A stretch of 64,000 nucleotides of DNA from Acidimicrobiia bacterium (GTDB taxonomy: Bacteria > Actinomycetota > Acidimicrobiia > Spongiisociales > UBA5794): NCBI GenBank assembly GCA_051002015.1, contig JBPCMS010000003.1, positions 1,155 to 65,154 of the forward strand. The letters run 5' to 3'. Below are positions 3,005 through 42,196 of the stretch, piece after piece. The notes beneath the pieces are model-generated. The model did not search any database. It saw only the letters and a program-made list of their open reading frames with translations, and had not been told where the DNA came from. The translations under genes and the position numbers were made by a program. Positions within the stretch are counted from its first letter, which is position 1. Each line of letters begins with the position of its first letter.

Positions 3005-3137
3005 GGCGTCGCCAGTGTACGGCGCCGGGGTGACATGACTCCGTTCCGGGTCGGTCCATCCGGCACCCTTGAATCTGTCACACCCGCTCCCTACGTTGAT
3101 GGGAACTTCCCCGGACCGTCGACCGAGGGAGTGGATC

Positions 3138-3680
3138 ATGACCGTGCTCGGCATCTGGTGTCCCGACGACGCCGTGCTCGGCGCGGTCGCTCCGCTGGCG
3201 CTGGCGGCGTCTGCCGGCACCGCCCTGGTGGTCGATGTCGACCCCGAGGGCACCGACTACCGGCGGGCGGGGACGTTGGCGGCTCTGGTCCGGGACGGGC
3301 CCACCAGGCGCCAGCTGCACCCCACCCGGCGGGGGGTCGCCGTGCTCGCCAACGGTGGGATCACCGCAAGCGAGGCGGCCGAGGTCATCGACGCCCTCGT
3401 CGCCGGATGGCCCCGGGTGGTGCTGCGCCACCCACCGGGTCCAAGACCGGACGGTCCCCGGGTGGTGCCGGTCCATCCACTGGTACCAGGCCGTCCGGTC
3501 GACCCGTCCACCCCTGCCGTCTACCAGCGGGGGCCGTGGGCGGTCGATCTGCCCCCGCCGGCGGTGGTGCTGCCCCGGGCCGGGCCCGGTGCCGTCCGCT
3601 GCCTGCTCGAGGGGCGCCGCCCCGGTCCGTCGCGCTGGCTCCGCCACTGGAGACGGGTGTGGGAGCTTCCGTGGCCGTGA
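3138..3680 (+). CDS. TadZ/CpaE-like ParA/MinD-family protein with a degenerate Walker A (pseudo-ATPase), first gene of the tad operon
   Basis: MTVLGIWCPDDAVLGAVAPLALAASAGTALVVDVDPEG aligns to the ParA/MinD N-terminus (VIAV.S.KGGVGKTT.A.NLA.ALA..G..VLLVDADP.G), but KGGVGKT is replaced by CPDDAVLG. Its stop overlaps the tadA GTG. Confidence 0.45.
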   Translation: MTVLGIWCPDDAVLGAVAPLALAASAGTALVVDVDPEGTDYRRAGTLAALVRDGPTRRQLHPTRRGVAVLANGGITASEAAEVIDALVAGWPRVVLRHPPGPRPDGPRVVPVHPLVPGRPVDPSTPAVYQRGPWAVDLPPPAVVLPRAGPGAVRCLLEGRRPGPSRWLRHWRRVWELPWP

Positions 3681-4732: not shown

Positions 4733-5409
4733 CCGACCCGGTGCTCCACGCCGCCGCCGTCGCCGTCTGTCTTCTGGCCGGGGTGCCCTGGGTGGTTGCC
4801 GGCTCCATCGCCCTCGGTTCGCTGGGGCCCGAGGTCGGCCTGATGGCGGTGCTGGCGTTCCACCTGGCCCGCCGGCGGAGGGCACCCAACCGTGGCGGCG
4901 ACGAGGCGGTGGTGCTCGCCGCCCTGGGTGCCGAGCTGCGGCGGGGTGCCTCGGTGCGCACCGCCATCGAGCCGGCAGCGGCACGGTCGGCTCACCTCGA
5001 TCTGTCCGCCGCGGTCAGGCTCGCCGAGGCCGGCGCACCGGTGGAACGGGTGGCGGACGCCTTCGCCCGCGGCCTGCCACAAACCGGGCGGCTGGCGGGG
5101 CCTGCTTTGGTGGTGGCGGCGGCATCGGGCGGGCGCGCCTCAGCCGTGTTCGCCCGGCTCGCCGACAGGGCGTCGGCCCACCTCGAGGTCGAGGGCGAGC
5201 GCAGGGCCCTGACGGCGCAGGCCCGGCTGTCTGCCGTGGTGGTCGGTGCGATCCCGTGTGTCGTCCTCGGCTCGATGGCGCTCACCGGCCGGCTTTCCAG
5301 CCTGCTGGCGGCCGGGCCCTTCGGGGTGGTCGCCGTGATCGTCGGGTCGGTGCTGATGCTGACCGGGATGGCGGTGGTGGTGGCGCTGACGAGGAGGACG
5401 CTGAAGTGA
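4729..5409 (+). CDS. tadB: TadB-like pilus assembly membrane protein (T2SS-F family)
   Basis: Multi-TM protein directly coupled to tadA by GTGA, in the position and size of TadB. Confidence 0.7.
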   Translation: MTDPVLHAAAVAVCLLAGVPWVVAGSIALGSLGPEVGLMAVLAFHLARRRRAPNRGGDEAVVLAALGAELRRGASVRTAIEPAAARSAHLDLSAAVRLAEAGAPVERVADAFARGLPQTGRLAGPALVVAAASGGRASAVFARLADRASAHLEVEGERRALTAQARLSAVVVGAIPCVVLGSMALTGRLSSLLAAGPFGVVAVIVGSVLMLTGMAVVVALTRRTLK

Positions 5410-6017
5410 CCAACACGGCTCGGGTGGCGGCGGTGCTGATGTTGCTCGCATGGGCTCCTGCTCGTCTTCGCACCGCCCTGGCCCCCTTGGCGCCCGGGCT
5501 GTGGTCGCCACCGGCGGTGGTGGTCGCCGTCCTCATCCGGCCGCTGTGGCGTCTCCGTGAACGGCTGGCTCGGCGGCGGCGCGCCGCCTCCGATGCCGCC
5601 GAGCAGGGCGATCTGTTCGCCGAGCTGCTCGTCATCGGGCTCAGTGCCGGTTGGGGGTTCCCGCAGACCCTGGGCTGGGTTGCCCCCCGACTCGGGGAAC
5701 CGCTGCGGGGCGAGGTCGAGACCGTGGTACGGCGGATGCGCCACCACGGCGGGGCGGCGCTCGACGGTGCAGGCGGCAGCGCCGCCGATCTGTACCGGCT
5801 GGTGGCCAGGGCCCAGGCCACCGGGGCGCCCCTGGTCGAAGCCGTGGAGCGGTTCGCCGCCGACAGGACGTCGTCGCGCCGCCAGGAGACGTTGGCCGCG
5901 GCCCGGCGGCTCCCCGTCGTCCTGGTGTTCCCGCTGGCACTGTTGATCCTGCCCGGGTTCGTGCTGGTGACGGTGGCCCCGGCGCTGGTCGCCGCCCTGG
6001 AGAGGCTCGGGTCATGA
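5406..6017 (+). CDS. tadC: TadC-like pilus assembly membrane protein
   Basis: GTGA overlap with tadB. A TM N-terminus and C-terminal TM segments (PVVLVFPLALLILPGFVLVTVAP) are typical of TadC. Confidence 0.65.
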   Translation: MTNTARVAAVLMLLAWAPARLRTALAPLAPGLWSPPAVVVAVLIRPLWRLRERLARRRRAASDAAEQGDLFAELLVIGLSAGWGFPQTLGWVAPRLGEPLRGEVETVVRRMRHHGGAALDGAGGSAADLYRLVARAQATGAPLVEAVERFAADRTSSRRQETLAAARRLPVVLVFPLALLILPGFVLVTVAPALVAALERLGS

Positions 6018-6070
6018 CTTCCCCCCGAGGCCGGCCGGTCGCCGGCATTGTCAGAACGGAGGTGAGCATC

Positions 6071-6238
6071 ATGCTCGACCGAATCGGTAGGGAGCGCGGT
6101 CAGGCGACCGCCGAGTACGCCCTGGTCATCGTCGCCGCCGCCGCCATCGCCCTGGCGTTGATCCTGTGGGCGACGTCCACGGGGGCGCTGGAGAGCTTCT
6201 TCGACTCGGTGGTGGCCAAGGTGTCGTCGTACGTGTGA
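6071..6238 (+). CDS. flp: Flp family type IVb prepilin
   Basis: MLDRIGRERG/QATAEYALVIVAAAAIALALI carries the Flp G/XXXXEY processing motif followed by a hydrophobic helix. 55 aa. Confidence 0.7.
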   Translation: MLDRIGRERGQATAEYALVIVAAAAIALALILWATSTGALESFFDSVVAKVSSYV

Positions 6239-6600
6239 CCGCCCGGTCCGAGTCGGGGTCGGCGGTGGTCGAGTTCGCCCTGGTCGTCCCGGTGGTCCTC
6301 ATCGTGCTGCTGGGCGTGGTCGACGTGGCGCTGCTCGCCCGGTCCCAGCTCGAGGTGGTGGGGGCGGCACGTGAGGGGGCGCGCCAGGCCGCGGTCAGCC
6401 CGGATCCGGCCGATGCGGTGGCTGCGGTGCGCTCGGCGTTGGGAAGCAGGGGCGCCTTGGCGGCGGTGTCGGTAAGCCGCCCGTCCGTGGTGGGCGCCCC
6501 GGCCGAGGTCGTGGTGAGACTGGAGCACGCCCTCGGCTCGTGGTTCGGTGGGGTGGGGGTGCAGCTCACCGGGCGGGCGACGATGCGGGTCGAGCAATGA
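6235..6600 (+). CDS. tadE: TadE-like pseudopilin/pilus assembly protein
   Basis: ESGSAVVEFALVVPVVLIVLLGVVDVALLARSQLEVVGAAREGAR is a TadE N-terminal domain. GTGA overlap with flp. Confidence 0.65.
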   Translation: MTARSESGSAVVEFALVVPVVLIVLLGVVDVALLARSQLEVVGAAREGARQAAVSPDPADAVAAVRSALGSRGALAAVSVSRPSVVGAPAEVVVRLEHALGSWFGGVGVQLTGRATMRVEQ

Positions 6601-7049
6601 TCCGCCCGTGTGCCGTCGCCCGCCGCAGCCGACCGCCCCCCACCGGGCGGCACCGCACGGTCGAGCGGGGATCGGCCTCCGTGCTGATGGTGGCGGTGAC
6701 GGCCACGGCGATGCTGTTCGCCCTGCTGGTGGCCGATGTCGGGCTCTACCTGACCGGAAGAGCCAAGGCGGTGACGGCGGCGGATGCGGCGGCGCTGGCG
6801 GCCGCCCCGGTGACCTTCCACGGCTTCGGATCGTCCGGCTCGCCCGTCGACGAGGCGGCCCGGTTCGCCGCGCTGCACGGGATGGGGCTGGTGAGCTGCG
6901 TCTGCCCGGTCGACCACACCTGGCAACCGAGGACGGTGGTGGTGGTGGTCAGCGGATCCGTCGACCTCATCATGCTCGGCAGCCGCACGGTGTCGGCGTC
7001 CGCCGCCGCCGAGTTCGATCCAACCAGGATCGTGGCAGACGGGGGCTGA
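6597..7049 (+). CDS. TadE/TadG-like protein (Rv3655c-like)
   Basis: ATGA overlap with the previous gene. ASVLMVAVTATAMLFALLVADVGLYLTGRAKAVTAADAAALA is a TadE/G-like N-terminus. Confidence 0.55.
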   Translation: MIRPCAVARRSRPPPTGRHRTVERGSASVLMVAVTATAMLFALLVADVGLYLTGRAKAVTAADAAALAAAPVTFHGFGSSGSPVDEAARFAALHGMGLVSCVCPVDHTWQPRTVVVVVSGSVDLIMLGSRTVSASAAAEFDPTRIVADGG

Positions 7050-7071
7050 CCGGTGGTGGCATACTCGGCGG

Positions 7072-7722
7072 GTGCAGCTGACCCGCCTCGGCCACGCCGC
7101 CCTGCTCGTGGAGACACCGTCGGCCCGACTCCTCATCGACCCCGGCATCTACACCGAGGACTGGCACGAGGTGGTCGGACTGGACGCGGTGCTGGTGACC
7201 CACCAGCATCCCGATCACGTCGACGCGGCGAACCTCGCCGGGCTGCTCGCCGGCAACCGGTCCGCCCGGCTGGTGACCGAGGCCGCGGTGGCACCGCTCC
7301 TCGCCGAGCATGGATTGGATGCCGAGGTGGCGGCGCCGGGCGCGAACTTCGCCCTGGCCGCGGTCCGGGTGGATGTGGTGGGCGGCTTGCACGCCGTCAT
7401 CCACCAGAGGATTCCCCGGGTCGGCAACGTGGGCTACGTCGTCTCCGAACCGGATGGCCCCCGGCTGTTCCATCCCGGCGACGCCTACGACACCGTGCCC
7501 GCCGGGGTCGATGTCCTTGCTCTGCCGCTCGCCGCTCCCTGGGCCAGCGCCGCCGCCACCGCCGACTTCCTCACCGCGGTCGCTCCGGCCGAGGCCGTGC
7601 CGATTCACGATGGAGCCCTCAACGCCACCGGGTGGGAGCTCTACCTGCGTATCATCGGCGGCCTGGCCGATCCGACGATCACCCTTCATCACCTCGACCC
7701 GGCGGGCACCCTCGCCCTCTGA
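7072..7722 (+). CDS. MBL-fold metallo-hydrolase
   Basis: THQHPDHVD (HxHxDH) plus downstream His/Asp residues. GTG start. Confidence 0.75.
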   Translation: MQLTRLGHAALLVETPSARLLIDPGIYTEDWHEVVGLDAVLVTHQHPDHVDAANLAGLLAGNRSARLVTEAAVAPLLAEHGLDAEVAAPGANFALAAVRVDVVGGLHAVIHQRIPRVGNVGYVVSEPDGPRLFHPGDAYDTVPAGVDVLALPLAAPWASAAATADFLTAVAPAEAVPIHDGALNATGWELYLRIIGGLADPTITLHHLDPAGTLAL

Positions 7723-7738
7723 GGCGGCCGAAGACGAA

Positions 7739-8368
7739 TCAGCGGACGCCGGCGGGGCGGAACTGGATCGAGATACGGGGCCCGACCGGCTTGGCCGTCT
7801 TGGGGACGCAGTGGTCCCAGGTTCGCTGGCAGGACCCGCCCATCACCAGCAGGTCGCCGTCGCCCAACGAGAACCGCATCGTCCCGCCTCCTTCCCGGGG
7901 CCGCAGCAGCAGGGAACGGGGCGAGCCCACCGAGAGGATGGCCACCATCGTGTCGACGTCACGCCCCCGTCCGATGCGGTCGCCGTGCCAGGCCACCGAG
8001 TCGGCGCCGTCGCGGTACAGGCACAGCCCGGCAGATACGAACGGCTCGCCCAACTCCGCCGCGTAGTGCTCGCTCAGCATCGCCATGGCCTCCTCGAGCA
8101 CCGGATGGGGGAGCGCATCCCCCGACCCGTAGAAGCAGGTGAGGCGGGGCACGTCGACCACCCGGTCGTACATCTGGCGACGGTCGCCTCGCCACGGCGC
8201 CTCCCGGTGCAGCGCCTCGAACAGCAGGTCGGCCCCGCCCAGCCAGCCCGGGCGGTGGTCCACCCAGGCACCCCGGGTCAGCTCGGTACGAGCCAGTCCG
8301 ACCACCACCTCTCCCAACAGAGGCAGGTCGGCCGCCCCGAGCAGAGAGCCCTGCCATGCCGTCGCCAT
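7739..8368 (-). CDS. alkB: Alpha-ketoglutarate-dependent dioxygenase AlkB (oxidative DNA/RNA demethylase)
   Basis: ...WHGDRIGRG.D...IAILSVGSPRSLLLRPREGGGTMRFSLGDGDLLVMGGSCQRTWDHCVP... matches the AlkB 2OG-Fe(II) oxygenase core. Confidence 0.8.
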   Translation of the reverse strand: MATAWQGSLLGAADLPLLGEVVVGLARTELTRGAWVDHRPGWLGGADLLFEALHREAPWRGDRRQMYDRVVDVPRLTCFYGSGDALPHPVLEEAMAMLSEHYAAELGEPFVSAGLCLYRDGADSVAWHGDRIGRGRDVDTMVAILSVGSPRSLLLRPREGGGTMRFSLGDGDLLVMGGSCQRTWDHCVPKTAKPVGPRISIQFRPAGVR

Positions 8369-8436
8369 ACGCTCATCCTACCGCCCATCGAACACATGTT
8401 CTACCGCTGGTTTGACCCGGGCCTTGCCCGGGAGCC

Positions 8437-9354
8437 TCACGAGGCGCGGCGGAACCGCTCGTACCTCCGCTCCACGCCGACGGAGTCCGGGCGCCACTCG
8501 GGACGGGTGGGCACGACCAGCCGACGACCGTGCACGCCCTGGATCCCGTGCTGCAGCATCGGCCCGTCGACCTCCTCCAGGACGTCCCTGCGCACTTCGG
8601 CGACCAGCTCCGCGCCGGGGCGGACCCCCAGGATGTCGGCGTCGAAGGCGGCGTGGTGGATCTTGCACATGGCGAACCCGTTGGGGATCACCGGCTCGCC
8701 CCCGTCGCGGTCGGAGACGATGTGGGCGGCGTCGAGCAGCTCGGCGTGGCCCAGCGAGCACACCGTGCACCGGGTGCGGTAGGCCCGGAGCACGTTCGAC
8801 CGGAACAACGCCTGGTGGGCTCGCTGACGCACCAGCCGCAGGTAATGGTGGCGCTGGGTGATGTCGACCAGCTCGTGGGTGAGCCCGGCGACCACGGAGA
8901 CCAGCGGCAACAGGGCGACCTCGAACCGGAGCACCGCGGAGTCATCGCGGAGGATCACCGCCGCCGACGCCTGGTAGACACCCCCGGTGATCCCCTGCAG
9001 GTAGAGAAGCGTGGTCCCGCGGTGCATCACCTCGCGCAGCATTCGGTTGTCCCGATGGTCCGGATCCGTCCCCCGGTAGGCGTACGACAGGTAGCCGTCT
9101 GCGGTGATCTCGTCGAGGTAAGGGGCAGTTCGGTCAGGCCTCGGCGGCGTCGTCCTGATCGAGATCGGCAGGTCGAGCCGGGCCGGCTTGAAGATCCCCT
9201 GCTGGCTGACCAGGCGGATTCTCCAGCCGCCGAACACGAACCCGGAGCTGAGCTGATGCCAGGTGATCGGTACCTCGCCGTCGCCGGTCACCTCGGCGAC
9301 GTAGGCGATGGCGGCGGCACGAATCAGGTCGTCCGTGGAGCCGCTGCGGTCCAT
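8437..9354 (-). CDS. Putative modification-dependent restriction endonuclease (COG3440-type; C-terminal HNH nuclease with an N-terminal SRA/SAD-like domain)
   Basis: C-terminal CTVCSLGHAELLDAAHIVSDRDGGEPVIPNGFAMCKIHHAAFD is an HNH_2 motif. The true start (MDRSG..) is at 9354. The 584-aa ORF above it is an artefactual extension. Confidence 0.6.
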   Translation of the reverse strand: MDRSGSTDDLIRAAAIAYVAEVTGDGEVPITWHQLSSGFVFGGWRIRLVSQQGIFKPARLDLPISIRTTPPRPDRTAPYLDEITADGYLSYAYRGTDPDHRDNRMLREVMHRGTTLLYLQGITGGVYQASAAVILRDDSAVLRFEVALLPLVSVVAGLTHELVDITQRHHYLRLVRQRAHQALFRSNVLRAYRTRCTVCSLGHAELLDAAHIVSDRDGGEPVIPNGFAMCKIHHAAFDADILGVRPGAELVAEVRRDVLEEVDGPMLQHGIQGVHGRRLVVPTRPEWRPDSVGVERRYERFRRAS

Positions 9355-9407
9355 TCCCGGAATGTAGACACCGCCGCCTCCGTGGTGCCGACGACCGCGC
9401 CGGGCGG

Positions 9408-30208: not shown

Positions 30209-30308
30209 GCGCACCGTCGACCGCCCCGGTGGCGAGCCCCAGTCCGGGTAGGAGCGGCCATCTCGTAGACTGGCAGCCAGCAAATCCGTCCTCTGCCGAG
30301 GGAATCCG

Positions 30309-32276
30309 TTGAGCCGTAACGCACGCACCATCCTGGTCTACCTGTCCGTCGGCTTTCTCGTGCTGATGGGCGTCAACCTGTTCCTCGACGGGGGCACCAG
30401 ACCAACCGAGGTGTCGCTCGACGCCTTCATCAACCTGGTGGAGCAGGGCGACGTGGCCGAGGCCGTCATCCTGGAGAAGTCCGAGCAGGTGACCGGCACC
30501 CTGGCCGAGGGCGCCACCATGCCCGGCGGCGGCAGCGACTTCGTGGTCGGCTATCCCAACGAGTACGAGAACGACCTCACCCAGCTGCTCCTCGATGCCG
30601 GGGTCGACGTCACCTCCGACCCGGAGAACCCCTCGCTGCTGCAATGGTTCCTGGGGACGATCTTCCCCTATCTGCTCATCTTCGGCGTCTTCATCTTCAT
30701 CCTGATGCAGATGCAGGGGGGCGGGAACCGGGTGATGCAGTTCGGCAAGGCACGTACCAAGCAGGTCACCAAGGAGACCCCCAAGGCCACCTTCGCCGAC
30801 GTCGCCGGGGCGGAAGAGGCGGTCGAGGAGCTGGTGGAGATCAAGGAGTTCCTGGCCAACCCCGCCAAGTTCCGCGCCATGGGAGCCAAGATCCCCAAGG
30901 GCGTGCTCCTCTACGGCCCCCCCGGCACCGGCAAGACGCTGCTGGCCCGTGCCGTGGCCGGCGAGGCAGGGGTTCCGTTCTTCCCGATCTCCGGGTCCGA
31001 CTTCGTCGAGATGTTCGTCGGGGTCGGTGCCAGCCGGGTGCGTGACCTGTTCGAGCAGGCCAAGGCGCAGGCCCCCGCCATCGTCTTCATCGACGAGATC
31101 GACGCCGTCGGACGCCACCGTGGCGCCGGTCTCGGCGGCGGGCACGATGAGCGGGAGCAGACCCTCAACCAGCTTCTGGTCGAGCTCGACGGCTTCGACG
31201 TCAAGGTTGGGATCATCGTCATCGCCGCCACCAACCGACCGGACATCCTCGATCCCGCCCTGCTCCGCCCCGGCCGTTTCGACCGCCAGATCGTGGTCGA
31301 CCGGCCCGACCTCAGGGGCAGGGAGAAGATCCTGACCGTCCATGCCAAGGGCAAGCCGCTGGCCGAGGGGGTCGACCTGGGGGGGCTGGCCCGCCAGACC
31401 CCAGGCTTCACCGGTGCCGACCTGGCCAACCTGATCAACGAGGCGGCGATACTCGCCGCCCGGCGGGGTCGCACCGACATCGGCACCAGCGAGCTGGAGG
31501 AGGCGATCGACCGGGTGATGGCGGGTCCTGAGCGCCGCAGCCGCTTGATCACCGAGGCGGAGCGGGAGCTGACCGCCTACCACGAGGGCGGCCACGCCTT
31601 GGTGGGGCATGTGCTCCCCAACCTCGACCCGATCCACAAGGTCACCATCATCCCCAGGGGCAGGGCGGGCGGCTACACGCTGGCGCTCCCGATGGAGGAG
31701 AAGTACTTCAACCGCCGCTCCGAGCTGGTCGACCAGCTCGCCTACGCCCTGGGCGGGCGCACCGCCGAGGAGCTGGTGTTCGGCGACCCCAGCACCGGGG
31801 CCAACAACGACATCGAGAAGGCAACCAACCTCGCCCGCAAGATGGTGATGGAGTACGGCATGAGCGACAAGCTGGGCCCGCTCCGCTACGGCAAGCCCGA
31901 GGGCGAGGTCTTCCTGGGTCGCGACTACTCCCAACGCAACGACATCTCCAACGAGCTGGCCGCCGCCATCGACGAGGAGGTGCGCCGGCTGATCACCCAG
32001 GCCCACGACGAGGCCCGCGAGATCATCACCGCCCACCGCGACGCCCTCGACCGCATCGCCAAGGCGCTCCTGGAGAACGAGACCCTCGACGCCGCCGAGG
32101 TGGCGGTCATCTTCGGCGACATCCCCAAGTGGGAGCACGTCGGCAACGGCTCGCTGCGTATCCAGGCGCCCAGCCAACCGGTGGATGCCGGTGTCGAGGG
32201 GAGGGCGAGCGAGACCGTCGACGGCATGGTGGCCGCCCAGGCACCCCACGACGGTCCCCGGCCCCATCAGCCCTGA
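30309..32276 (+). CDS. ftsH: ATP-dependent zinc metalloprotease FtsH
   Basis: AAA Walker [12 protein letters not shown], and protease HEGGHA (HExxH). TTG/GTG-type start. Confidence 0.92.
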
Positions 32277-32355
32277 TCTCACCGCCGCGTCCTTCATCCC
32301 GGTCACCTGGCGGGTCCGCTCCACGACCTTGAGCACCGCCGACCACACCCTGGTG

Positions 32356-33162
32356 ATGGGGGTGCTCAACGTCACCCCCGATTCGTTCTCGGATGGGGGC
32401 CGCTTCGACGCCACCGACGCGACCGACGCCGCCGTTGCCGCCGGGCTGGACCTGTGGCGGCAGGGCGCCGACCTGGTGGATGTCGGGGGTGAGTCGACCA
32501 GGCCAGGCTCGGTCGGGGTGTCCGTCGGCGAGGAGACCGACCGGGTCATCCCCGTGGTCGCCGCCCTCGCCGCCCAAGGCGTGCTGGTCTCGGTCGACAC
32601 CTCCAAGCCGGAGGTTGCCGCCGCCGCCCTCGACGCCGGGGCCGAGGTCGTCAACGACATCACCGCCCTCGCCGACCCGGACATGGCTGCACTGTGCGCC
32701 GCCCGGGGTCCCGGGGTGGTGCTGATGCACATGCAGGGCACCCCGGAGACGATGCAGCTCGACCCCCGCTACCACGACGTGGTCGCCGAGGTGGAGCGAT
32801 ACCTGATCGACCGGGCCGCCGCCGCCGTCGCCGCCGGCGTCGATCCCGCCCGCATCTGCCTCGATCCGGGGATCGGGTTCGGCAAGCGGCTCGACCACAA
32901 CCTCGACCTGCTCTCGGGTGTGGCAACGCTGGCGGCCGCCGGATACCCGGTGCTGATCGGGGCCTCGCGCAAGGGGTTCCTGGGTGAGATCCTGGCCGCC
33001 GCCGGGCACGGTGCACCCGCCGACCGGAGAGACCCGGCCACCCACGCCACCACCGCCCTCGCCGTCGCCGCCGGCGCCGCCGTGGTGAGGGCCCACGACG
33101 TGGTCGGAACGCTTCAGGCGGCCCGGACCGCCGACGCTATCGTTCGTTCCCACGGACGCTGA
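32356..33162 (+). CDS. folP: Dihydropteroate synthase
   Basis: MGVLNVTPDSFSDGG...VDVGGESTRPG...DPGIGFGK. The start may be 9-18 codons upstream (TTG/GTG). Confidence 0.85.
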   Translation: MGVLNVTPDSFSDGGRFDATDATDAAVAAGLDLWRQGADLVDVGGESTRPGSVGVSVGEETDRVIPVVAALAAQGVLVSVDTSKPEVAAAALDAGAEVVNDITALADPDMAALCAARGPGVVLMHMQGTPETMQLDPRYHDVVAEVERYLIDRAAAAVAAGVDPARICLDPGIGFGKRLDHNLDLLSGVATLAAAGYPVLIGASRKGFLGEILAAAGHGAPADRRDPATHATTALAVAAGAAVVRAHDVVGTLQAARTADAIVRSHGR

Positions 33163-33171
33163 AGGGACCCG

Positions 33172-33645
33172 ATGGCTGGGCTCGAACCTAAGGGATTCAC
33201 CTGGGTGATAACCGGTCGTCTGGCGGTGTCCGAGCGGATCGGCGGCTACGGGTTCCAGCATCGCAGGGTGAGGCGTGAGGAGGAGGTGGTGTGGCTCCTC
33301 GCCGAGGGCGTCAACACCGTGTTCTCCCTGCTCCCCGGCAACCAGAACCAGGCGGCGTACGAGGGGGCCGGTCTCCGTTACTTCAACCACCCGGTCCCGC
33401 CCGACCTCGACCCGCACGATGCGCCCGGGATGTTCGCCGCCCTCGACGAGGCGCTGTCGCGCCGGGGCGCATGCGTGCTGGTCCACCGCGATCTGATCGA
33501 CGACACCGTGGTCGGGCTGCTCGGCGGCTACCTGGTGTACGCCGGGCTGGTAAAGGACCCGGTGATGGCCACCTCGATCATCCAGGAGATCACCGGCAGG
33601 CCGCTCGGCCCCGAGGGTCGCCGGCTGATCCCCGTTCCCGGTTGA
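33172..33645 (+). CDS. Dual-specificity/tyrosine-phosphatase-like protein lacking the CX5R catalytic loop (predicted pseudophosphatase), sitting where folB would be expected
   Basis: DSP-like layout [11 protein letters not shown]...[11 protein letters not shown]...YFNHPVPPD...[31 protein letters not shown] replaces HCxxGxxR. Confidence 0.45.
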
Positions 33646-34826
33646 CCGTCACCGTCGCCATCGGGCTCGGGTCCAACCTGGGCGACCGCCTCGGCCATCT
33701 TGCCGCCGCCGTCGCCGCCATCGGGACCTCGGTCGGGATGGTGGCGCGCCTGTCGTCGGTGTACGAGACGGCGCCCGTCGGCGGACCCGACCAGGACGAC
33801 TACCTCAACGCCGTTGCCGTGGTCGACACCGAGCTCGACCCCGACCAGACCCTCGACCGGCTGCTCGCCATCGAGCGGCAGATGGGCCGGGAGCGTCGGG
33901 AGCGGTGGGGCCCCCGGATCATCGACCTCGACCTGCTGCTGTACGGGGAGGCGACCATCGACCGGCCGGGGCTGACCATCCCCCACACCCGCATGACCGG
34001 TCGCCGCTTCGTGCTCGAGCCGCTGGCCGAGGTGTGGCCCCACCCGATCCTGCCCGACGGCACCGCCATCGCCGCCGCCCTCGATGCCGCCGCCGGCCAG
34101 GAGGTGCGGCGGCTGGGGACGCTCGACGGCCCGGCTCTCTATGGTGGGCCGGAGCAGGCGAGGAGGGCGATGGAAGACCCCGTTCCCCATACGATGCCGG
34201 ACAACGTGGTGGTGGTGGATCACCCGCTGGTGCAACACAAGCTGAGCCTGATGCGGCGCAAGGAGACCCCGACCGTCGAGTTCCGCATGCTGTTGCGGGA
34301 GATTTCGGCGCTGCTCGGCTACGAGGTCACCCGCGACCTGCCGCTGACCCTGGTGCCGATCGAGACCCCGATGGCGGCGATGGAGGCGCCGATGATCGAC
34401 GGTATCAAGCCGGTGATCGTCTCGATCCTGCGCGCCGGCGGCGGGATCCTCGAGGGCATGCTCGACGTGCTCCCCTCGGCCCGGGTGGGTCACATCGGGC
34501 TGTACCGGGACCACGACACGCTCCAGGCGGTCGAGTACTACTTCAAGATGCCGGACAGGGTCGAGGACCGGATGGTGATCGTGGTCGACCCGATGCTGGC
34601 CACCGGGCATTCGGCGGTGGCTGCCGTCGACCGTATCAAGACCCGCAACCCCAAGGAGATACGGTTCGTCTGCCTGCTCGCCGCCCCCGAGGGGATCGCC
34701 GAACTCCACCGCCTCCACCCGGATGTCGCCATCTGGACCGCAGCCATCGACAGCCACCTCAACGAGAAGGGCTACATCGTCCCCGGTCTCGGCGACGCCG
34801 GCGACCGCATCTTCGGGACCAAGTAG
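33642..34826 (+). CDS. folK: In-frame fusion of HPPK (FolK) with uracil phosphoribosyltransferase (Upp)
   Basis: N-terminal 160 aa are HPPK ([42 protein letters not shown]). After a roughly 45-aa linker come [17 protein letters not shown]...[11 protein letters not shown]...[17 protein letters not shown] (Upp). There is no stop codon between them. An AGGAGG sits 3 nt before the internal ATG (MEDPVPH). Confidence 0.7.
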
Positions 34827-34896
34827 GGGGTCGATGCCGGCCGCCTCCTACACTTCCGCCCCGGTCGGGTACCCGCCGGACGGAAACCGAGGTCGC

Positions 34897-35730
34897 ATGC
34901 GGATCGTCATCGTCGGGCCGGGTCGGGCAGGCCTGGCTCTCGCCATCGCCGCCGCCAGGGCCGGCCACCGCATCGTCGCCGTGGCCGGGCGCGACCTCGA
35001 CCACGCCTCCCCGGCCGCCGCTGCCCTCGGCGCCACCGCGCTCACCCTTGGCGACGCCATCCCCGGCAACGACCTGGTGGTGATCGCCACTCGCGACGAC
35101 GACATCGCCGCCGTCGCCGCCACCATGGCCGCATCGCCCGGGCTCATCACCGCCGCCGTCCACCTGTCGGGGCTGGCCCCGGTGGCGACCCTCGCCCCGC
35201 TCGCCGACCGGGGTGCCGCCACCGGGTCGATGCACCCCCTGCAGACCCTGCCCACGCCGGAGGCAGGCGCCGACCGGCTGGCCGGATCGTGGATGGCGGT
35301 CACCGCAGAGGAGCCGCTGGCGAGCACCCTCCGGGAGCTGGCCCGGTCGCTCGGCACCCATCCGTTCCCGCTGGCGGACGACGCCAAGCCGCTGTACCAC
35401 GCAGGCGCCGCCGCCGCCGCCAACTTCCCGCTCGCCTCCCTCACCATCGCCCACGACCTGTTCACCGCAGCCGGGGTGCCGGTGAAGGCGGCCCGGCCGC
35501 TGGTGGAGGCGGCCGTTGCCAACGCCTTCGAGATGGGGCCCCGGTCGGCCCTCACCGGACCGGTGGTGCGGGGCGACGCCGCCACCGTCTCCGCCCAGCT
35601 CGACGCCGTGGCCGCCGCCACCCCCGAGTGGCTCGACGGGTTCTCCGCCCAGGTGGCGCTGATCGCCAGGATCGCCGGGCGATGGGACGAGTTCGCCGAC
35701 GTGCTCGCCGTCGACCGGAGGGCGTCATGA
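34897..35730 (+). CDS. DUF2520/Rossmann-like oxidoreductase-family protein (Rv3603c-like)
   Basis: MRIVIVGPGRAGLALA NAD(P)-binding N-terminus. Conserved position upstream of panC. Confidence 0.7.
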   Translation: MRIVIVGPGRAGLALAIAAARAGHRIVAVAGRDLDHASPAAAALGATALTLGDAIPGNDLVVIATRDDDIAAVAATMAASPGLITAAVHLSGLAPVATLAPLADRGAATGSMHPLQTLPTPEAGADRLAGSWMAVTAEEPLASTLRELARSLGTHPFPLADDAKPLYHAGAAAAANFPLASLTIAHDLFTAAGVPVKAARPLVEAAVANAFEMGPRSALTGPVVRGDAATVSAQLDAVAAATPEWLDGFSAQVALIARIAGRWDEFADVLAVDRRAS

Positions 35731-36626
35731 GGGTCGCCCGCACCTTCGCCGAGGCCAGGGACGCCGGCGCATCCCCGGTGGGGCTGGTCGCCACCATGGG
35801 GTTCCTCCACGAGGGCCACCTGTCCCACGTCCATGCCGCCCGGGCCGCCGGCGACGGGACCGTGGTGATGAGCCTCTTCGTCAACCCGCTCCAGTTCGGT
35901 CCCAACGAGGACCTCGACCGCTATCCCAGGGACCTCGACCGCGACGCCGCCCTGGCCGAGTCCGCAGGTGTGGACGTGCTCTTCACCCCGTCCGTCGACG
36001 AGGTGTACCCCACCCCGCCGGACACGTTGGTCGAGGTGGGCGGCCCCGCCACCGCCCTCGAAGCCCGCTCCCGCCCCCGGCACTTTGCCGGCGTCGCCAC
36101 CGTGGTCACCAAGCTGTTCGCAGGGATCCGCCCCGATCGGGCCTACTTCGGGCGCAAGGATGCCCAGCAGCTCGCCGTGATCCGCCGCATGACCGCCGAC
36201 CTCTCCTTCCCCGTGGAGGTCGTCGGCGGCCCGATCATCCGCCACGCCGACGGCGTGGCGTTGTCGTCGCGCAACACCTTCCTGTCCGCCGGCGATCGGA
36301 TAGCCGCCACCGGGCTGTACCGCGGGCTGATGGCGGCGGCCGATGCGGTCGAGGCGGGGGAGCGGCACGGCTCCGCCCTGGAGGCGCTGGTCCGTGGGGC
36401 GTTGATGGCCAAGCCCGGGATCCATGTCGACTATGTGGAGCTGGCCTCGGCCGACCGGGTCGAGCGGCTGGTCGAGCTCGACCGCCCCGCCTTCCTCGCC
36501 GTCGCCGCCAGGGTTGGTGCGGTCCGGCTGATCGACAACATCCACCTCGACCCCGTCGACGGCGGGTTCGTCGCCGACCGGGGGACACGGCTGGTGGGGG
36601 CGTCGGTGATGGAGGTGGCGGGCTGA
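35727..36626 (+). CDS. panC: Pantoate--beta-alanine ligase
   Basis: HEGHLSHV (HIGH motif), FGRKDAQQL. ATGA overlap with the upstream gene. Confidence 0.9.
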   Translation: MRVARTFAEARDAGASPVGLVATMGFLHEGHLSHVHAARAAGDGTVVMSLFVNPLQFGPNEDLDRYPRDLDRDAALAESAGVDVLFTPSVDEVYPTPPDTLVEVGGPATALEARSRPRHFAGVATVVTKLFAGIRPDRAYFGRKDAQQLAVIRRMTADLSFPVEVVGGPIIRHADGVALSSRNTFLSAGDRIAATGLYRGLMAAADAVEAGERHGSALEALVRGALMAKPGIHVDYVELASADRVERLVELDRPAFLAVAARVGAVRLIDNIHLDPVDGGFVADRGTRLVGASVMEVAG

Positions 36627-37401
36627 TGCTGCTGGTGGTCGATGTGGGCAACAGCCAGACGGTGCTCGGTCTGTACGACGGGGAGCAGCTGGCGGCCCAC
36701 TGGCGGTTCACCACCGCCCGCAACCGCACCGAGGACGAGCTGCGCATGCTGTTCCGGGCGATGCTCGAGCTCGACGGGTTCTCCGAGAAGGACGTCACCG
36801 GGGTGGCGGTGTCGAGCGTGGTTCCTGCGGTGACGGCGGCGCTGCGGACGGCGGCGGCCGATCTCGCCCCCGAGGCGTTCGTGGTCGTCGAGCCGGGGGT
36901 GAAGACCGGGATGGCCATCCACATCGACAACCCGAGGGAGGTGGGCGCCGACCGGGTGGTGAACGCCGTCGCCGCCCGCCACCGCTACGGGGCGCCGGTG
37001 GTTTCGGTGGATTTCGGCACCTCGACCAACGTCGACGTGGTCGGTCCCGACGGCGACTACCTGGGCGGAGCCATCGCCCCCGGGCTGGCGATCTCGACCG
37101 ATGCGCTGATCTCGGGGACGGCGGCGTTGCGCAAGGTGGAGTTCGTGCCGCCCCGCTCGCCCATCGGGAAGGGGACGGTGGAGGCCATCCAGAGCGGTGC
37201 CCTGTACGGGCACGCCGGGCTGGTGGACGGGATCGTGGGCCGCATCGTCGCCGAGCTGGGCGGCGAGGTCACCGTGGTCGCCACCGGCGGGATGGCGTCG
37301 ACGATCGTGCCCCATTGCTCCACGGTGGGCATCGTCGACGAGTTCCTCACCCTCGACGGGCTACGCCTGGTGTACGACCTAAACCACGGGCCCGACGCCT
37401 C

Positions 37402-37405
<4 letters not shown>
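36626..37405 (+). CDS. coaX: Type III pantothenate kinase
   Basis: MLLVVDVGNSQTVLGLY and the Bvg-accessory-factor fold motifs. Start overlaps the panC stop. Confidence 0.9.
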
Positions 37406-38916
<1,511 letters not shown>

Positions 38917-39366: not shown

Positions 39367-41274
39367 CTACCGCGCCACCGGGGAGGTGACGGTCTCGAGC
39401 TCGAGGCGGAGGGCGATGGTGAGCGGCTCGAGCTGGGGCGAGCCGGTGTAGCGGCGCCCGTTGATGAAGAACGTCGGGGTGCCGGCGGCGCCGCTGTCGG
39501 ATGCGCTGGCGACGTCCCGGGCCACCCGGAGCGAGTGGCGCCGCTCGTCGAGATCGGAGACGAACCGCTCCACGTCGAGACCGAGCGCCTCGGCGTGGCC
39601 GATCAGGTCGTCCATGGCGAGATCGTCCTGGGCGGCGAACAGGGCGTCGTGCATCTCCCAGAAGCTGCCCTGGGCGGCTGCGGCCTCGGCCGCCTCTGCC
39701 GCCATCTCGGCGTGCTCATGCACCTCGACCAGGGGAAGGTGGCGGAAGACGAAGGCGAGGTCCCCGCCGAACCTTGTCTCCAGATCCTGGACAACGGGCT
39801 CGGCCCGCCCGCAGTACGGGCATTCGAAGTCGCCGTACTCCACCAGGGTGAGCGGGGCATCGACCGAACCGCGGATGTGATCGATCTCGGGATCGACCAC
39901 CTCGGCCAGGTCCCGGATCGGGGGCGCCAGCTTGCCCTCGCCCGCCGTTCGCACCTTCTCCGGGAGCCGCCTGATGACCCGGAACACCGACCAGGTGAGC
40001 ACCGAGGCGACGATCGATGCCGCCAGGATGCCCAGCTTGGCGTCCTCCAGCTCCACCCCGGTGAACGAGATGTCGGCGATGAGCAGCGAGACGGTGAACC
40101 CGATGCCGGCGACGGTGGCCGCCCCCGTCAGCGGTGCCCAGGGGACGGTGAGGGGGAAGCCGCCCATCCACGGGCGGGACACCAGCCAGGTGACCCCGAC
40201 GATCCCGATAGGTTTGCCCAGCACCAGCCCGGCGATGATCCCGAGCGTTATCGGGGAAGAAGCCGCCACCCTGATGGCCTCCGCATCCACCTTCACCCCG
40301 GCGTTGGCCAGGGCGAACAGGGGGACGATCACGTAGCTGGTCCACGGGTGGAACCGGTGCTGGGCCCGCTCGTTGGGCGAGATGGCGAGCTCCATGGTCC
40401 TGCCGGCGGAACGGGCGTAGGCGGGGGTGGGCTCCTCGCGGAACAGGCGCCAACCGGCGGCGGCGCGTTGCAGGTCGTGACGGCTGGGCGGGTAGGCGGT
40501 GGCCAGCACCCCGACGGCGACCCCGGCGATGGTGGCGTGGACACCGGAGAGGAGGGTGGCGATCCACACCCCGACCCCGACCAGGAAGTAGGGCAGCCCG
40601 CCCCGCACCCCTACCCGGGTGAGCAGCGCGATCACCCCGAACAGGACAACCGCCACCGCCAGCGCCGAGAGTGAAAGGTCGGAGGTGTAGGCGATGGCGA
40701 TGACGGTGAGGGCCACCACGTCGTCGATGATCACCAGGGTGAGCAGGAACGCCCGCACCCTGGGGGAGGCACCCCCGACCAGGGTGAGGATGCCGATGGC
40801 GAATGCGGTGTCGGTGCCCATCACGATGCCCCAGCCCCGCACCGAGGCCTCCCCGGCGTTGATGGCGAGATAGATCAGCGCCGGCACCGCCATTCCCCCG
40901 ATGGCGGCGAGCACCGGGGTGGCCACCCGGCGCCGCTCCCGCAGCTCGCCCATGTCGAACTCGCGGCGGATCTCGAGCCCGACCACGAAGAAGAACAGTG
41001 CCATGAGCCCGTCGTTGATCCAGTGGCGCAGGTCGAGCGACAGCTCCCTACCCCCGAACCGCACCGCCAGCTCGGTTTGCCAGAGGTCCTCGTAGGACGC
41101 CGCCCACGGGGAGTTGGCCCAGATCAGGGCGGTGACGGTGGCCAACAGCAGGATCACCGCCCCGGCGTTCTCGGTGCCGATGAACTCACGCAGCGGGACC
41201 ACCCAGCGGGTGACGGGCGTGGATGACTGGGTCGGTCCGGCCCGCTCCGCCGGGGCCGGGTTCCCGCTCAGCAT
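39367..41274 (-). CDS. nhaA: Na+/H+ antiporter NhaA fused to a C-terminal DsbA-like thioredoxin domain
   Basis: NhaA TM core (INDGLMALFFFVVGLEIRRE, GTDTAFAIGIL). C-terminal DsbA domain with CPYC (EYGDFECPYCGRAEP...GTPTFFINGRRY). True start is MLSGNPAP at 41274. Confidence 0.85.
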   Translation of the reverse strand: MLSGNPAPAERAGPTQSSTPVTRWVVPLREFIGTENAGAVILLLATVTALIWANSPWAASYEDLWQTELAVRFGGRELSLDLRHWINDGLMALFFFVVGLEIRREFDMGELRERRRVATPVLAAIGGMAVPALIYLAINAGEASVRGWGIVMGTDTAFAIGILTLVGGASPRVRAFLLTLVIIDDVVALTVIAIAYTSDLSLSALAVAVVLFGVIALLTRVGVRGGLPYFLVGVGVWIATLLSGVHATIAGVAVGVLATAYPPSRHDLQRAAAGWRLFREEPTPAYARSAGRTMELAISPNERAQHRFHPWTSYVIVPLFALANAGVKVDAEAIRVAASSPITLGIIAGLVLGKPIGIVGVTWLVSRPWMGGFPLTVPWAPLTGAATVAGIGFTVSLLIADISFTGVELEDAKLGILAASIVASVLTWSVFRVIRRLPEKVRTAGEGKLAPPIRDLAEVVDPEIDHIRGSVDAPLTLVEYGDFECPYCGRAEPVVQDLETRFGGDLAFVFRHLPLVEVHEHAEMAAEAAEAAAAQGSFWEMHDALFAAQDDLAMDDLIGHAEALGLDVERFVSDLDERRHSLRVARDVASASDSGAAGTPTFFINGRRYTGSPQLEPLTIALRLELETVTSPVAR

Positions 41275-41500
41275 CGGATGCCGTCCCCGACATGGCGGCG
41301 CGTCGTTGTCGGGGGCGCAACCCGGCCGCTCGGCGGTTCGGGTAGCCGGGCACGGCCGGGTTGCGGTCGGCGGAGCATCGGCGATGATTGTACGGGCCGT
41401 CTCCGGCCCACCGTCGCCCGACCAGAATCGCGCCATACCCCCCGCGCCGAGTAGCCTCACGTGAAATCCTTCCGTCTGGAAGCCCAAGGGGGAGATCGAG

Positions 41501-42196
41501 ATGCGTGCACCCAGGTTCCTCGTGTTGCTGGCGCTGATGCTGGTGCTGGCCGCCTGCGGTGGCGGGGACGACGGTTCGGACACAACGACGGGCGATACGT
41601 CGGCCGCCGGGACGGACACCACGGTTGGCGGGACTGACACCACCACCACCGCCACCTCACCAGACGACGCAGATCAACCGGTGGTGTCGTCGCTCGACGA
41701 CATACCCCAGGAGTGCGTGGACGCCTTCGTCGACTATCTGCGGGCCATCGAGCCGACGGTCGAGGGAATCGACTTCGACACCGCCACGTCAAACGACCTC
41801 GACCAGCTCTTCACCGACCTCGAGCCCATCGAGGAGGAGTTCGATGCCAGCACCCTCGATCTCGCCTGCCCGGACCTCGACGACGATGTGGACGTCTTCC
41901 CCGCACTGATCGAGATCGCCTCGCGTGAGGCACCCGGCACCGTCGGCTTCCTCGAGGTCATCGCCAGCTTGGTCGGTGCCGCCGGTGGCGCCGCGGTCGA
42001 GGCGAGCGGCGACTGCGAGACCGACATCGCCGCCGTCCAGGCCTACGTCGACCAAGGGGGAACGATGGGCGATCTGCCCATGGCCGATTTCGCCCCCCTG
42101 CTCGCCCTGCTCACCTCGCTGTCGACCGTGTGCTCGGCCGAGCGGTCCGCCGAGTTCTTCAGCCAGGACGACGTGACCGCCTTCATGTCGGAGTAG
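41501..42196 (+). CDS. Acidic lipoprotein, hypothetical
   Basis: Lipobox LAAC|GGG, a very acidic Asp/Glu/Thr-rich body, and a GGGGGAG Shine-Dalgarno. Confidence 0.6.
   Translation: MRAPRFLVLLALMLVLAACGGGDDGSDTTTGDTSAAGTDTTVGGTDTTTTATSPDDADQPVVSSLDDIPQECVDAFVDYLRAIEPTVEGIDFDTATSNDLDQLFTDLEPIEEEFDASTLDLACPDLDDDVDVFPALIEIASREAPGTVGFLEVIASLVGAAGGAAVEASGDCETDIAAVQAYVDQGGTMGDLPMADFAPLLALLTSLSTVCSAERSAEFFSQDDVTAFMSE

Follow-up and report, generated by a model that had tools for sequence, protein, structure and literature searches.

An in-frame fusion of folK and upp specific to a lineage of uncultured soil Acidimicrobiia, with probable remains of upp expression signals in the linker

Introduction

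Fusions are common in the folate pathway (PMC1971073). In FolB-FolK of S. pneumoniae (SulD, 2cg8), in HPPK-DHPS (Francisella 4pzv and 3mcm, and 7mpy, a 'folate synthesis bifunctional protein') and in yeast FOL1 (2bmb), a canonical HPPK is joined to a second enzyme, and this partner acts at a neighbouring step within the folate pathway. In HPPK-DHPS, HPPK is the N-terminal and the partner the C-terminal domain. Fusions are also found for Upp (UPRT), an oligomeric, GTP-activated enzyme that makes UMP from uracil and PRPP: in RpiB-Upp, LMW-PTP-Upp and uracil permease-Upp, a complete C-terminal Upp follows another complete domain. For the RpiB and permease partners, a connection with uracil or PRPP metabolism is evident, and in Bacillus rpiB and the LMW-PTP gene are located near upp. 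A different kind of precedent is provided by infB, clpB and cheA of E. coli, each of which gives rise to two in-frame products via an internal start; an in-frame Shine-Dalgarno sequence and start codon lie inside the longer ORF, and the short product, an isoform, corresponds to the C-terminal part. Here we analyse a gene of uncultured soil Acidimicrobiia in which folK, encoding HPPK, the enzyme that transfers pyrophosphate from ATP to 6-hydroxymethyl-7,8-dihydropterin, continues in frame into upp.

Results

The window, that is, the whole stretch of 64 kb that was analysed, contains on its plus strand a frame with no stop codon between a TTG at 33642 and a TAG at 34824-34826. The folK::upp ORF (33642-34826, +) comprises 394 codons plus the TAG and encodes 394 aa, and its fused orthologues measure 389-394 aa. 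The earlier note had described a single 394-aa ORF, and so it is: the frame stays open from TTG to TAG and both domains are complete. Ribosomes on folK must, as was also claimed, run into upp, there being no stop in the frame, and folK translation is predicted directly from the sequence to yield an HPPK-Upp protein of ~42 kDa. The TTG start overlaps the TGA stop of the preceding gene X (TTGA), an arrangement through which folK starts are probably coupled to the gene X stop. Because the G+C content is 70.6%, the open linker by itself is unremarkable (by our own estimate from approximate base frequencies, an open stretch of 28 codons has a chance of ~0.7 per sequence); the significance of the open frame comes from its conservation across relatives, not from the frame in the window alone.

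Fifteen clusters of proteins (90% identity; P0001-P0015), 65-99% identical, carry both PF01288 and PF14681, and we read the DNA of ten distinct fused genes, all of them intact, in JGI, NCBI, ENA and Logan assemblies of Illumina and long-read data. The ORF is fused and intact in L001 (a 3.25-Mb MAG chromosome), L081/L082, L084-L088, L092/L093, L172 and L173, and in L094, which represents a third, more divergent lineage, the C-terminus of HPPK is in frame with Upp. The fused sequences are related, with dS between subclades of ~0.65-1.2, and the counts do not represent independent events. Orthologous fusions in relatives, which the earlier note proposed to look for, are thus plentiful, and homologous genomes do not always have separate genes: some relatives do, yet an entire clade has the fusion. 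The ten intact fused loci have the gene order tilS-hpt-ftsH-folP-X-folK::upp-DUF2520-panC in common. DHPS is encoded by a separate gene (32185-33162, profile match), and neither folE nor folB was found in the surrounding cluster. A second candidate fusion in the window, coaX-lysS, has an open frame (36610-38916), but was rejected for lack of a Pan_kinase match.

The HPPK (FolK) domain occupies residues 1-160 (33642-34121, +), as delimited by profiles, structure alignment, AF2 pLDDT and dN/dS. PF01288 matches residues 7-133 (E-value 6e-40; 136.7 bits against a cut-off of 25.7; profile positions 2-116 of 116), and TIGR01498 scores 139.9 bits against a cut-off of 54.1. The domain ends at ~155-160: the alignment with E. 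coli HPPK reaches residue 155 of 158, the NF010692 match extends to 158, and pLDDT is high as far as ~160. By sequence, the domain matches 2cg8, 4pzv/3mcm, 7mpy and 2bmb. The motifs YLNA, RWGPR, DLD and PH...R.F, which we take to serve pterin binding, loop 3, Mg2+ and ATP, respectively, are all retained in comparison with the E. coli and Y. pestis HPPK structures and are invariant in 11 fused sequences.

The Upp domain (34203-34826, +), delimited by profiles, structure alignment and dN/dS, comprises residues 188-394 and the stop codon. PF14681 covers residues 191-393 (E-value 7.5e-74; profile positions 1-206 of 206), TIGR01091 scores 271.5 bits against a cut-off of 208.35 (profile positions 2-207 of 207) and NF001097 289.6 bits against 114. 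The domain aligns end to end with the UPRT of B. caldolyticus (1i5e, residues 4-209 of 209); the PRPP-binding VDPMLATG and the C-terminal uracil-binding segment are identical to it or conservatively changed, and are invariant in the fused clade. In the fused genes, dN/dS ranges from 0.17 to 0.56 in the HPPK domain and from 0.04 to 0.18 in the Upp domain. Since the catalytic motifs are kept and both domains are under purifying selection, both activities are to be expected. An AF2 model of the fusion (11-sequence alignment; mean pLDDT of 55.9) is confident in the HPPK half only, the Upp half being low. Outside Acidimicrobiia, the closest Upp matches are from Rhizobiales, with 60-71% identity; any transfer of Upp from there would predate the fusion, because unfused Acidimicrobiia have the same type of Upp.

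As in HPPK-DHPS, HPPK is N-terminal and its partner C-terminal, and as in the other Upp fusions, a complete Upp follows a complete domain. The partner, however, is not an enzyme of the folate pathway: a profile search of the 394-aa protein gave no match to FolB or Pterin_bind, which sets it apart from the folate-pathway bifunctional proteins, and Upp shares no intermediate with HPPK. Neither does HPPK have a link to uracil or PRPP metabolism of the kind that is obvious for RpiB and the permease. The suggestion that the architecture is not a standard one is borne out. HPPK-UPRT is absent among the solved structures compared by sequence, our literature search on HPPK with UPRT or on a folK-upp fusion returned nothing relevant, and there is no fused representative among those at 50% identity, the fused family having seemingly been absorbed into plain Upp clusters at that level. 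With respect to the literature and structures searched, the HPPK-UPRT domain architecture is new.

As HPPK reaches ~155-160, the linker consists of residues 161-187 (34122-34202, +), which is ~27 aa instead of the ~45 aa given previously. It is predicted by AF2 to be disordered and is variable, and the region of residues 141-187 evolves nearly neutrally as protein (dN/dS 0.56-1.5). Within it, three elements are conserved as nucleotides. The first, TATGGTG (34140-34146, +), which encodes Tyr167-Gly168, is a -10-like hexamer (TANNNT) followed by G. Its general form, TATSGTG, is invariant among the fused loci other than L094, with G or R as the second residue. It holds the sole TAT among the nine Tyr codons of the gene, and its second codon ends in T, as do ~5% of codons in the fused genes. 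TATSGTG occurs once in the 64-kb window, both strands considered, and the composite junction motif is found in 3.19 Mb of DNA, again on both strands, only at this junction (15/15 fused loci). The hexamer stands at a suitable distance before the ribosome-binding site and is conserved beyond coding, as a SigA -10 sequence would be. TANNNT is the preferred form of the SigA -10 element in mycobacteria, in whose promoters an evident -35 is often absent (PMC6448022). Scanning 33000-35200 with an E. coli-type consensus revealed no sigma-70 promoter, a -35 match and with it any -35/-10 pair being absent, and no terminator, and because of this outcome the -10 proposal is based on the conservation of TANNNT. 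Since Tyr167 does not vary at the amino-acid level either, conservation of TAT may partly reflect a role at the protein level; such a role would leave the choice of TAT over TAC and the conserved SGT unexplained.

The second element is the Shine-Dalgarno-like GAGGAGG (34160-34166, +; core GGAG, 34162-34165), encoding Arg174-Arg175 via the rare AGG. In the fused genes, GGAG is unchanged while the residues that it encodes differ (RR, GR, RS or GS), and AGR codons, ~9% of the Arg codons, are mostly at this site. The third element is an in-frame ATG (34170-34172, +; Met177, MEDPVPH), the probable start of a free Upp of 218 aa; every fused gene other than L094 has GGAG-N4-ATG or GGAG-N4-GTG at the homologous position. 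Hence both elements that the earlier note had pointed out, the AGGAGG at 34161-34166 and the in-frame ATG at 34170, are there, at a GGAG-to-ATG spacing of 4 nt, which is short. A second internal ATG (34194-34196, +; Met185) is without a Shine-Dalgarno sequence and occurs only in the closest relatives of the window. Among the fused loci, the distance from the -10-like hexamer to GGAG is 16, 19 or 22 nt and that from Gln to Tyr 14, 17 or 18 codons. At least four independent length changes have taken place upstream of the internal start, all by multiples of 3 nt, for which we estimate a chance of (1/3)^4, or ~0.01, if the frame were not constrained. L094 is fused and has neither the TATSGTG nor the GGAG motif, indicating that the motifs are not universal. 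A structured RNA element coupling the two parts was also considered and was dropped on the outcome of RNAalifold, which across the linker and the 5' end of upp found no meaningful conserved helix (-1.4 kcal/mol).

In two relatives, folK and upp are separate genes in the same neighbourhood. In L089, folK ends with a TAG stop and is followed by a spacer of 120-140 nt and then upp, whereas in L090 and L091 folK and upp are set apart by a gene for an aldehyde dehydrogenase, which is encoded on the other strand. That relatives have the two genes separate but in one neighbourhood implies that the fusion joined genes which were already neighbours. The upp start of L090 reads TAGGAT-18 nt-GGAG-ACAG-ATG CCA GAG GTC, and its MPEV matches an internal MPEV of L001. 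The non-coding spacer of L089 holds TATCGTG (chance ~0.004, our own estimate from a shuffle expectation); the alignment of the spacer with the fused linker is not colinear, and homology of this TATCGTG is argued from its rarity, not from the alignment. A neighbour-joining tree of FolP, X, HPPK and Upp (802 columns) is nearly a star, with bootstrap values of 28-68% for the placement of L089 and L090, and does not separate a single origin of the fusion from several or from later fissions.

Stand-alone FolK proteins of other Acidimicrobiia have 186-197 aa and are 56-68% identical to the fused protein across the HPPK domain; at the loci looked at, L090 and L091, they are encoded in the same folP-X-folK neighbourhood. 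A hydrophobic, transmembrane-like helix follows the HPPK domain in 105 of the 120 closest stand-alone HPPKs. The stand-alone proteins of Acidimicrobiia thus mostly end in such a helix, whereas the fused clade is without it and has Upp in its place.

Discussion

The fusion is a lineage-specific feature of uncultured soil Acidimicrobiia, neither a sequencing error nor a new pathway. We consider it most probable (roughly 0.7) that a real fusion has retained the old upp signals in its linker, and that both the fusion and free Upp are made. The ancestral folK would have encoded an HPPK, probably with a short, membrane-anchor-like C-terminal tail, and would have stood just upstream of an upp that had a promoter and a ribosome-binding site to itself. 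The tail and the stop codon of folK may then have been lost by deletion or rearrangement, so that the last HPPK strand would have run on in frame into the sequence preceding upp. Accordingly, what is now the linker was most likely once the promoter and 5'UTR of upp, together with the old 5' end of the gene, and is now also translated; we read it in this way because it is nearly neutral as protein, keeps nucleotide motifs and matches the start of an unfused upp. Ribosomes coming from folK would read through this region, as a flexible linker of ~27 aa, into upp. In addition, since TATGGT (34140-34145), GGAG (34162-34165) and ATG (34170) are conserved as nucleotides, we infer that Upp is most likely also made alone, as a protein of ~23 kDa, via an internal transcript and/or internal initiation. 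That Upp may be made separately had been raised before and is strongly reinforced by the conserved GGAG-N4-RTG, which matches the upp start of the unfused L090. A conserved in-frame Shine-Dalgarno sequence and start codon inside the ORF are what characterize genes with two products, and by analogy with infB, clpB and cheA the short product would be the C-terminal part; here, however, it would be a complete separate enzyme instead of an isoform, and the internal signals, including a promoter-like -10 box, would be the remains of a once independent gene.

A rather unlikely alternative is that the gene encodes an obligate bifunctional enzyme, with the 42-kDa HPPK-Upp as its only product and TATSGTG and GGAG-ATG as relics or as, for example, a means of translational pausing for the folding of HPPK. 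It is consistent with the preservation of the frame through at least four in-frame indels, with the persistence of the fusion in L094 in the absence of both motifs, with the short GGAG-ATG spacing and the failure to find a -35 box, and with the fact that the conserved elements are rare codons (TAT, GGT/CGT and AGG/AGA) clustered exactly between the domains. Relics, however, should decay over a subclade dS of ~0.65-1.2 in a linker with dN/dS of ~1, and pausing would tolerate any rare codon, whereas here exact hexamers are kept while amino acids change. Moreover, the same elements occur in the non-coding DNA upstream of the unfused upp of L089 and L090.

As for the benefit of the retained fusion, it most likely serves co-expression or tethering, and HPPK may have had its membrane anchor swapped for an oligomeric partner. 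A stronger version, in which the junction is of dual use, linking the domains and also acting as a working promoter, 5'UTR and ribosome-binding site, while HPPK is tethered on Upp oligomers that serve as a soluble scaffold in place of the membrane anchor, is offered tentatively, as a possibility well short of probable. If it were true, the fusion would be a functional swap of a localisation device and not a neutral accident.

We consider it unlikely that substrates are channelled between the folate-synthesis and pyrimidine-salvage pathways. The broader proposal of an adaptive physical coupling of the two pathways, with active sites that cooperate or regulate one another, for instance by balancing the supply of UMP for thymidylate against that of folate, appears improbable to us. 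The fusion does persist in at least three subclades with its frame kept, and a loose metabolic link exists through dTMP synthesis, a folate cofactor being required to make dTMP from nucleotides that derive from uracil. Against this, the HPPK and UPRT reactions have no substrate or product in common, the linker is variable and predicted to be disordered, Upp retains expression signals of its own, and separate genes suffice in close relatives. Upp is, furthermore, fused elsewhere to unrelated upstream neighbours, suggesting fusion by adjacency. The physical coupling of pathways advanced in the earlier note therefore finds no support: neighbouring genes have fused and the Upp signals have been kept. 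More generally, the locus cautions that a 'Rosetta-stone' fusion is no proof of a functional link between pathways.

Finally, there is next to no likelihood that errors of sequencing or assembly (a lost stop or an indel) created the open frame and that folK and upp are really separate. The window does derive from an assembly of metagenome type, 28 open codons are not improbable at 70% G+C and some related assemblies show split genes (L002 and L083/P0016, the latter with 257 aa). Against this, ten distinct fused genes at 65-99% identity come from independent samples, assemblers and technologies, every difference in linker length is in frame, and the split versions, which we rejected as true split genes and regard as indel artefacts, sit in loci where several other genes (the adjacent ftsH, folP, DUF2520 or lysS) are broken too.

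Public annotation of the fused genes is uneven. The 394-aa product is called either 'hypothetical' or 'uracil phosphoribosyltransferase', in contrast to calls of Upp with 210 or 218 aa; the latter originate from gene callers that begin Upp at Met177, whereas the 210-aa Upp, starting at the ATG of Met185, is the NCBI annotation of one MAG. As a result of this unevenness, pathway reconstructions for soil Acidimicrobiia may miss folK. The locus also offers a natural example of the fusion of neighbouring genes, in which the fused and unfused states are both extant and what are probably the old promoter, ribosome-binding site and start can be seen in the linker.

Gene X (33172-33645, +; 157 aa), which lies outside the fusion protein, is located between folP and folK wherever the stretch was read intact. 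It has no match in Pfam or NCBIfam and more than 1400 homologs. Its AF2 model (pLDDT 82) gives VHZ/DUSP23 as the best Foldseek matches and is without the catalytic Cys, pointing to a predicted dual-specificity-phosphatase-like fold. The occurrence of a conserved phosphatase-fold protein in the position of folB, together with HPPKs that have membrane-anchor-like tails, may be relevant to the pterin branch and its long-standing 'missing gene' problem.

Identity and spread of the fused gene

The folK::upp ORF (33642-34826, + strand, 394 codons ending in TAG) starts with a TTG that shares bases with the TGA of the preceding 157-aa gene X (TTGA overlap). As the earlier note had claimed, it is a single stop-free frame, and both of its domains are complete by HMM: HPPK/FolK in the N-terminal half (Pfam PF01288 at residues 7-133; 139.9 bits against NCBIfam TIGR01498, cut-off 54.1) and Upp in the C-terminal half (PF14681 at residues 191-393; 271.5 against TIGR01091, cut-off 208.35, and 289.6 against NF001097, cut-off 114). 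Motifs of the characterised enzymes are kept in both halves (YLNA, RWGPR, DLD and PH..R.F in HPPK; VDPMLATG and a second, 14-residue motif in Upp), and no second HPPK or Upp was found elsewhere in the 64-kb window. Because the HPPK half aligns with E. coli HPPK through residue 155 of 158 and the AF2 model of the fusion is confident to ~residue 160, the linker spans ~27 residues (161-187); the previously proposed length of ~45 aa was too long, as HPPK extends to ~155-160.

Orthologous fusions were recovered from related taxa. Among 5.8 billion proteins searched, 15 clusters (P0001-P0015; JGI, NCBI, ENA and Logan assemblies) carry both Pfam domains at 65-99% identity; the members complete at both termini are 389-394 aa long. 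Ten distinct fused genes, read as DNA from short-read and long-read assemblies (the window, L092/L093, L085, L001, L088, L081/L082, L086, L087, L084, L172 and L173), are all intact, with no internal stop; that of L001 sits on a 3.25-Mb Acidimicrobiia MAG chromosome. A divergent fragment, L094 (63% identity), has a longer linker and likewise carries the HPPK C-terminus in frame with Upp. The gene order tilS-hpt-ftsH-folP-X-folK::upp-(79-aa ORF, one subclade)-DUF2520-panC-coaX-lysS is constant. Judged from these assemblies, the fusion is not an artefact, and the folK::upp observation is confirmed at the sequence level. L002 and L083/P0016 look split, but neither was accepted as a real fission: ftsH, folP, DUF2520 or lysS is fragmented there too, the mark of indel-rich assemblies.

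Known HPPK fusions (2cg8, 4pzv, 3mcm, 2bmb, 7mpy) have FolB or DHPS as partner, whereas here the partner is Upp. A comparative-genomics survey of the folate pathway mentions FolB-FolK and FolK duplications and no Upp partner (PMC1971073), and our literature search found no paper naming HPPK and Upp together. Annotation of the near-identical cluster P0001 is inconsistent, with 394-aa 'hypothetical protein' entries (CAN5512998.1), 218-aa products called from Met177 and a 210-aa 'uracil phosphoribosyltransferase' called by NCBI from Met185 (MGI8821747.1); genomes carrying a short Upp call may leave folK unannotated.

A translated linker with putative regulatory signals

Pairwise Nei-Gojobori estimates of dN/dS among the fused genes are 0.04-0.18 for the Upp domain, 0.17-0.56 for the HPPK domain and 0.56-1.5 for residues 141-187. 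The linker is nearly unconstrained as protein. Its nucleotides, however, include two conserved elements, the chief new finding of the analysis. The first is the AGGAGG (34161-34166) preceding an internal ATG (34170, Met177) that had been pointed out earlier; a second internal ATG lies at 34194 (Met185). In every fused gene examined, L094 apart, GGAG is followed after 4 nt by an in-frame ATG or GTG, 8-16 codons ahead of the Upp DHPL motif. GGAG is constant although the residues it encodes vary (Arg-Arg, Gly-Arg, Arg-Ser or Gly-Ser), and it is read through AGG or AGA, which make up only ~9% of Arg codons in the fused genes and mostly fall at this very site. In the unfused L090, GGAG-ACAG-ATG CCA GAG GTC (MPEV...) is the actual upp start, and the internal Met of L001 also begins MPEV. 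The invariant GGAG-N4-RTG and its match to the L090 start make it likely that Upp is also produced separately, as the earlier note suggested.

The second element, a TATSGTG heptamer located 16, 19 or 22 nt 5' of GGAG and translated as Tyr plus Gly or Arg, is invariant in the fused genes (L094 apart). The window gene uses TAT for only one of its nine Tyr codons, the one in this heptamer; the following codon ends in T, as do only ~5% of codons in fused genes, and the residue after Tyr varies while SGT stays fixed. The 64-kb window, both strands counted, has a single TATSGTG, and across 3.19 Mb of fetched DNA the composite TATSGT-N14-24-GGAG-N4-RTG turned up nowhere but at this junction, at 15 of 15 fused loci. 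TATSGT conforms to TANNNT, the -10 form that mycobacterial SigA prefers; no clear -35 is seen in those bacteria (PMC6448022). Unfused relatives have comparable boxes: TAGGAT lies 18 nt ahead of the GGAG of L090, and TATCGTG lies within the non-coding folK-upp spacer of L089 (estimated chance ~0.004 from shuffle expectation). In our reading, the linker would be the former upp promoter and 5'UTR, selected as such while being translated.

The linker of L094 (positions 150-190; Ga0307505_10094220) has neither TATSGTG nor GGAG; a short unit is repeated in tandem within it (TACTGGA TACTGGA TACTGGA TACCGGA). A TACTAT hexamer 7 nt ahead of an in-frame GTG could there give a leaderless internal transcript.

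Origin of the fusion and its products

In L089, folK (182 aa, TAG stop) is separated from upp by a 120-140-nt spacer holding two more in-frame stops, and the Upp is 81% identical to that of the window; in L090 and L091 (72% Upp identity), an opposite-strand aldehyde dehydrogenase gene lies between folK (197 aa) and upp. The separate genes in the same neighbourhood indicate that the fusion came from neighbouring genes. It may have arisen once or several times, and secondary fission in L089 is another possible reading, as the neighbour-joining tree of FolP, X, HPPK and Upp is near-star, with bootstrap values of 28-68% for placing the unfused taxa. Outside the Acidimicrobiia clade, most of the nearest Upp sequences belong to Rhizobiales and other Alphaproteobacteria, at 60-71% identity (L003-L080, L095-L171), and this type of Upp may have been acquired horizontally long ago.

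Ribosomes translating folK meet no stop before 34824, so that an HPPK-linker-Upp protein of ~42 kDa is encoded. At this G+C content, a stop-free linker is weak evidence of selection. In fused genes 14, 17 or 18 codons separate an invariant Gln from the Tyr, and 16, 19 or 22 nt separate the -10-like box from GGAG; the indels 5' of the internal start, at least four of them independent, are thus all multiples of three (estimated chance without frame constraint ~0.01). This favours selection that keeps read-through open or, at the least, selection against a tail that enters upp out of frame. No conserved RNA structure was found across the junction. Conservation suggests that free Upp (218 aa) would also be made, via an internal transcript and/or initiation at 34170, and, because Upp is oligomeric, tethered and free forms could co-assemble. 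The physical coupling of the two pathways envisaged earlier is not supported, nor is any catalytic coupling: the HPPK and Upp reactions have no intermediate in common, the linker varies, and relatives manage with the genes apart. Upp fusions to RpiB, an LMW phosphatase or a uracil permease occur in other lineages, in what looks like fusion by adjacency. We regard folK::upp as a putative bifunctional fusion that joins two canonical enzymes; the partner is unusual, and the putative internal promoter and RBS are well preserved. The gene neatly illustrates fusion, with precursor states still visible and a putative dual-use linker, and is not a new kind of system.

HPPK tails, gene X and the neighbourhood

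The stand-alone HPPKs that come closest in the database all show 56-68% identity over the HPPK domain; they are mostly 186-197 aa long and, where the source is named, labelled as Acidimicrobiia or Actinobacteria MAGs. A hydrophobic, transmembrane-like C-terminal helix of ~20 residues (for example ...GALVFLTVAALVLTMWWLLDAVLK) is present in 105 of the 120 closest (P0401-P0520, mostly 187-190 aa; see also the L090 folK, 2781-3374) and is absent from the fused proteins. This pattern suggests tail-anchored HPPK in this class; in the fused clade, Upp stands where other HPPKs have a membrane-anchor-like tail. These HPPKs and gene X may merit more attention than the fusion itself.

Gene X (33172-33645, +) lies between folP and folK, its start and stop both overlapping the adjoining genes; it recurs in L001 (5531-6004), L084 (905-1378), L085 (1776-2249), L086 (4774-5247), L087 (5526-5999), L088 (2708-3181), L089 (4201-4677) and L090 (2303-2776). 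It has no Pfam or NCBIfam match, and its >1400 homologs at ~70% identity are all annotated 'hypothetical'. The predicted fold is that of a dual-specificity phosphatase (AF2 pLDDT 82; Foldseek TM ~0.7 to VHZ/DUSP23, Tk-PTP and RNA 5'-phosphatase), and the family has no invariant Cys, with H-R-D-L-I-D-D-T in place of HCX5R. The usual actinobacterial cluster is ftsH-folE-folP-folB-folK, so that X occupies the folB slot. Here ftsH is directly followed by folP (30252-33162), with no folE between them, and folB is absent from the cluster; tblastn with FolB queries (E. coli, M. tuberculosis) and a FolE query (E. coli) gave no match within the 64-kb window. X may be a candidate to fill a 'missing' step of the pterin branch, gaps of the folQ or folB type being listed in PMC1971073.

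One subclade has a conserved ORF of 78-79 aa, without a Pfam match, in the gap that separates folK::upp from the DUF2520 gene (L081 7270-7509, L084 2617-2856, L086 6609-6848, L087 7264-7500, L172 1687-1926 and L173 2974-3213). The window does not have this ORF, its upp stop and DUF2520 start (34898) being only ~70 nt apart. In L088, four minus-strand genes (4449-9361), including one for a 644-aa AAA_16/NACHT-like STAND-type ATPase, occupy the same gap, marking it as an insertion site in an otherwise fixed cluster. Another fusion of the neighbourhood joins an NhaA-type Na+/H+ antiporter domain to a C-terminal DsbA/thioredoxin domain in one long ORF (39367-41673, - strand; also L085 7984-9418 and L083 11135-12774).
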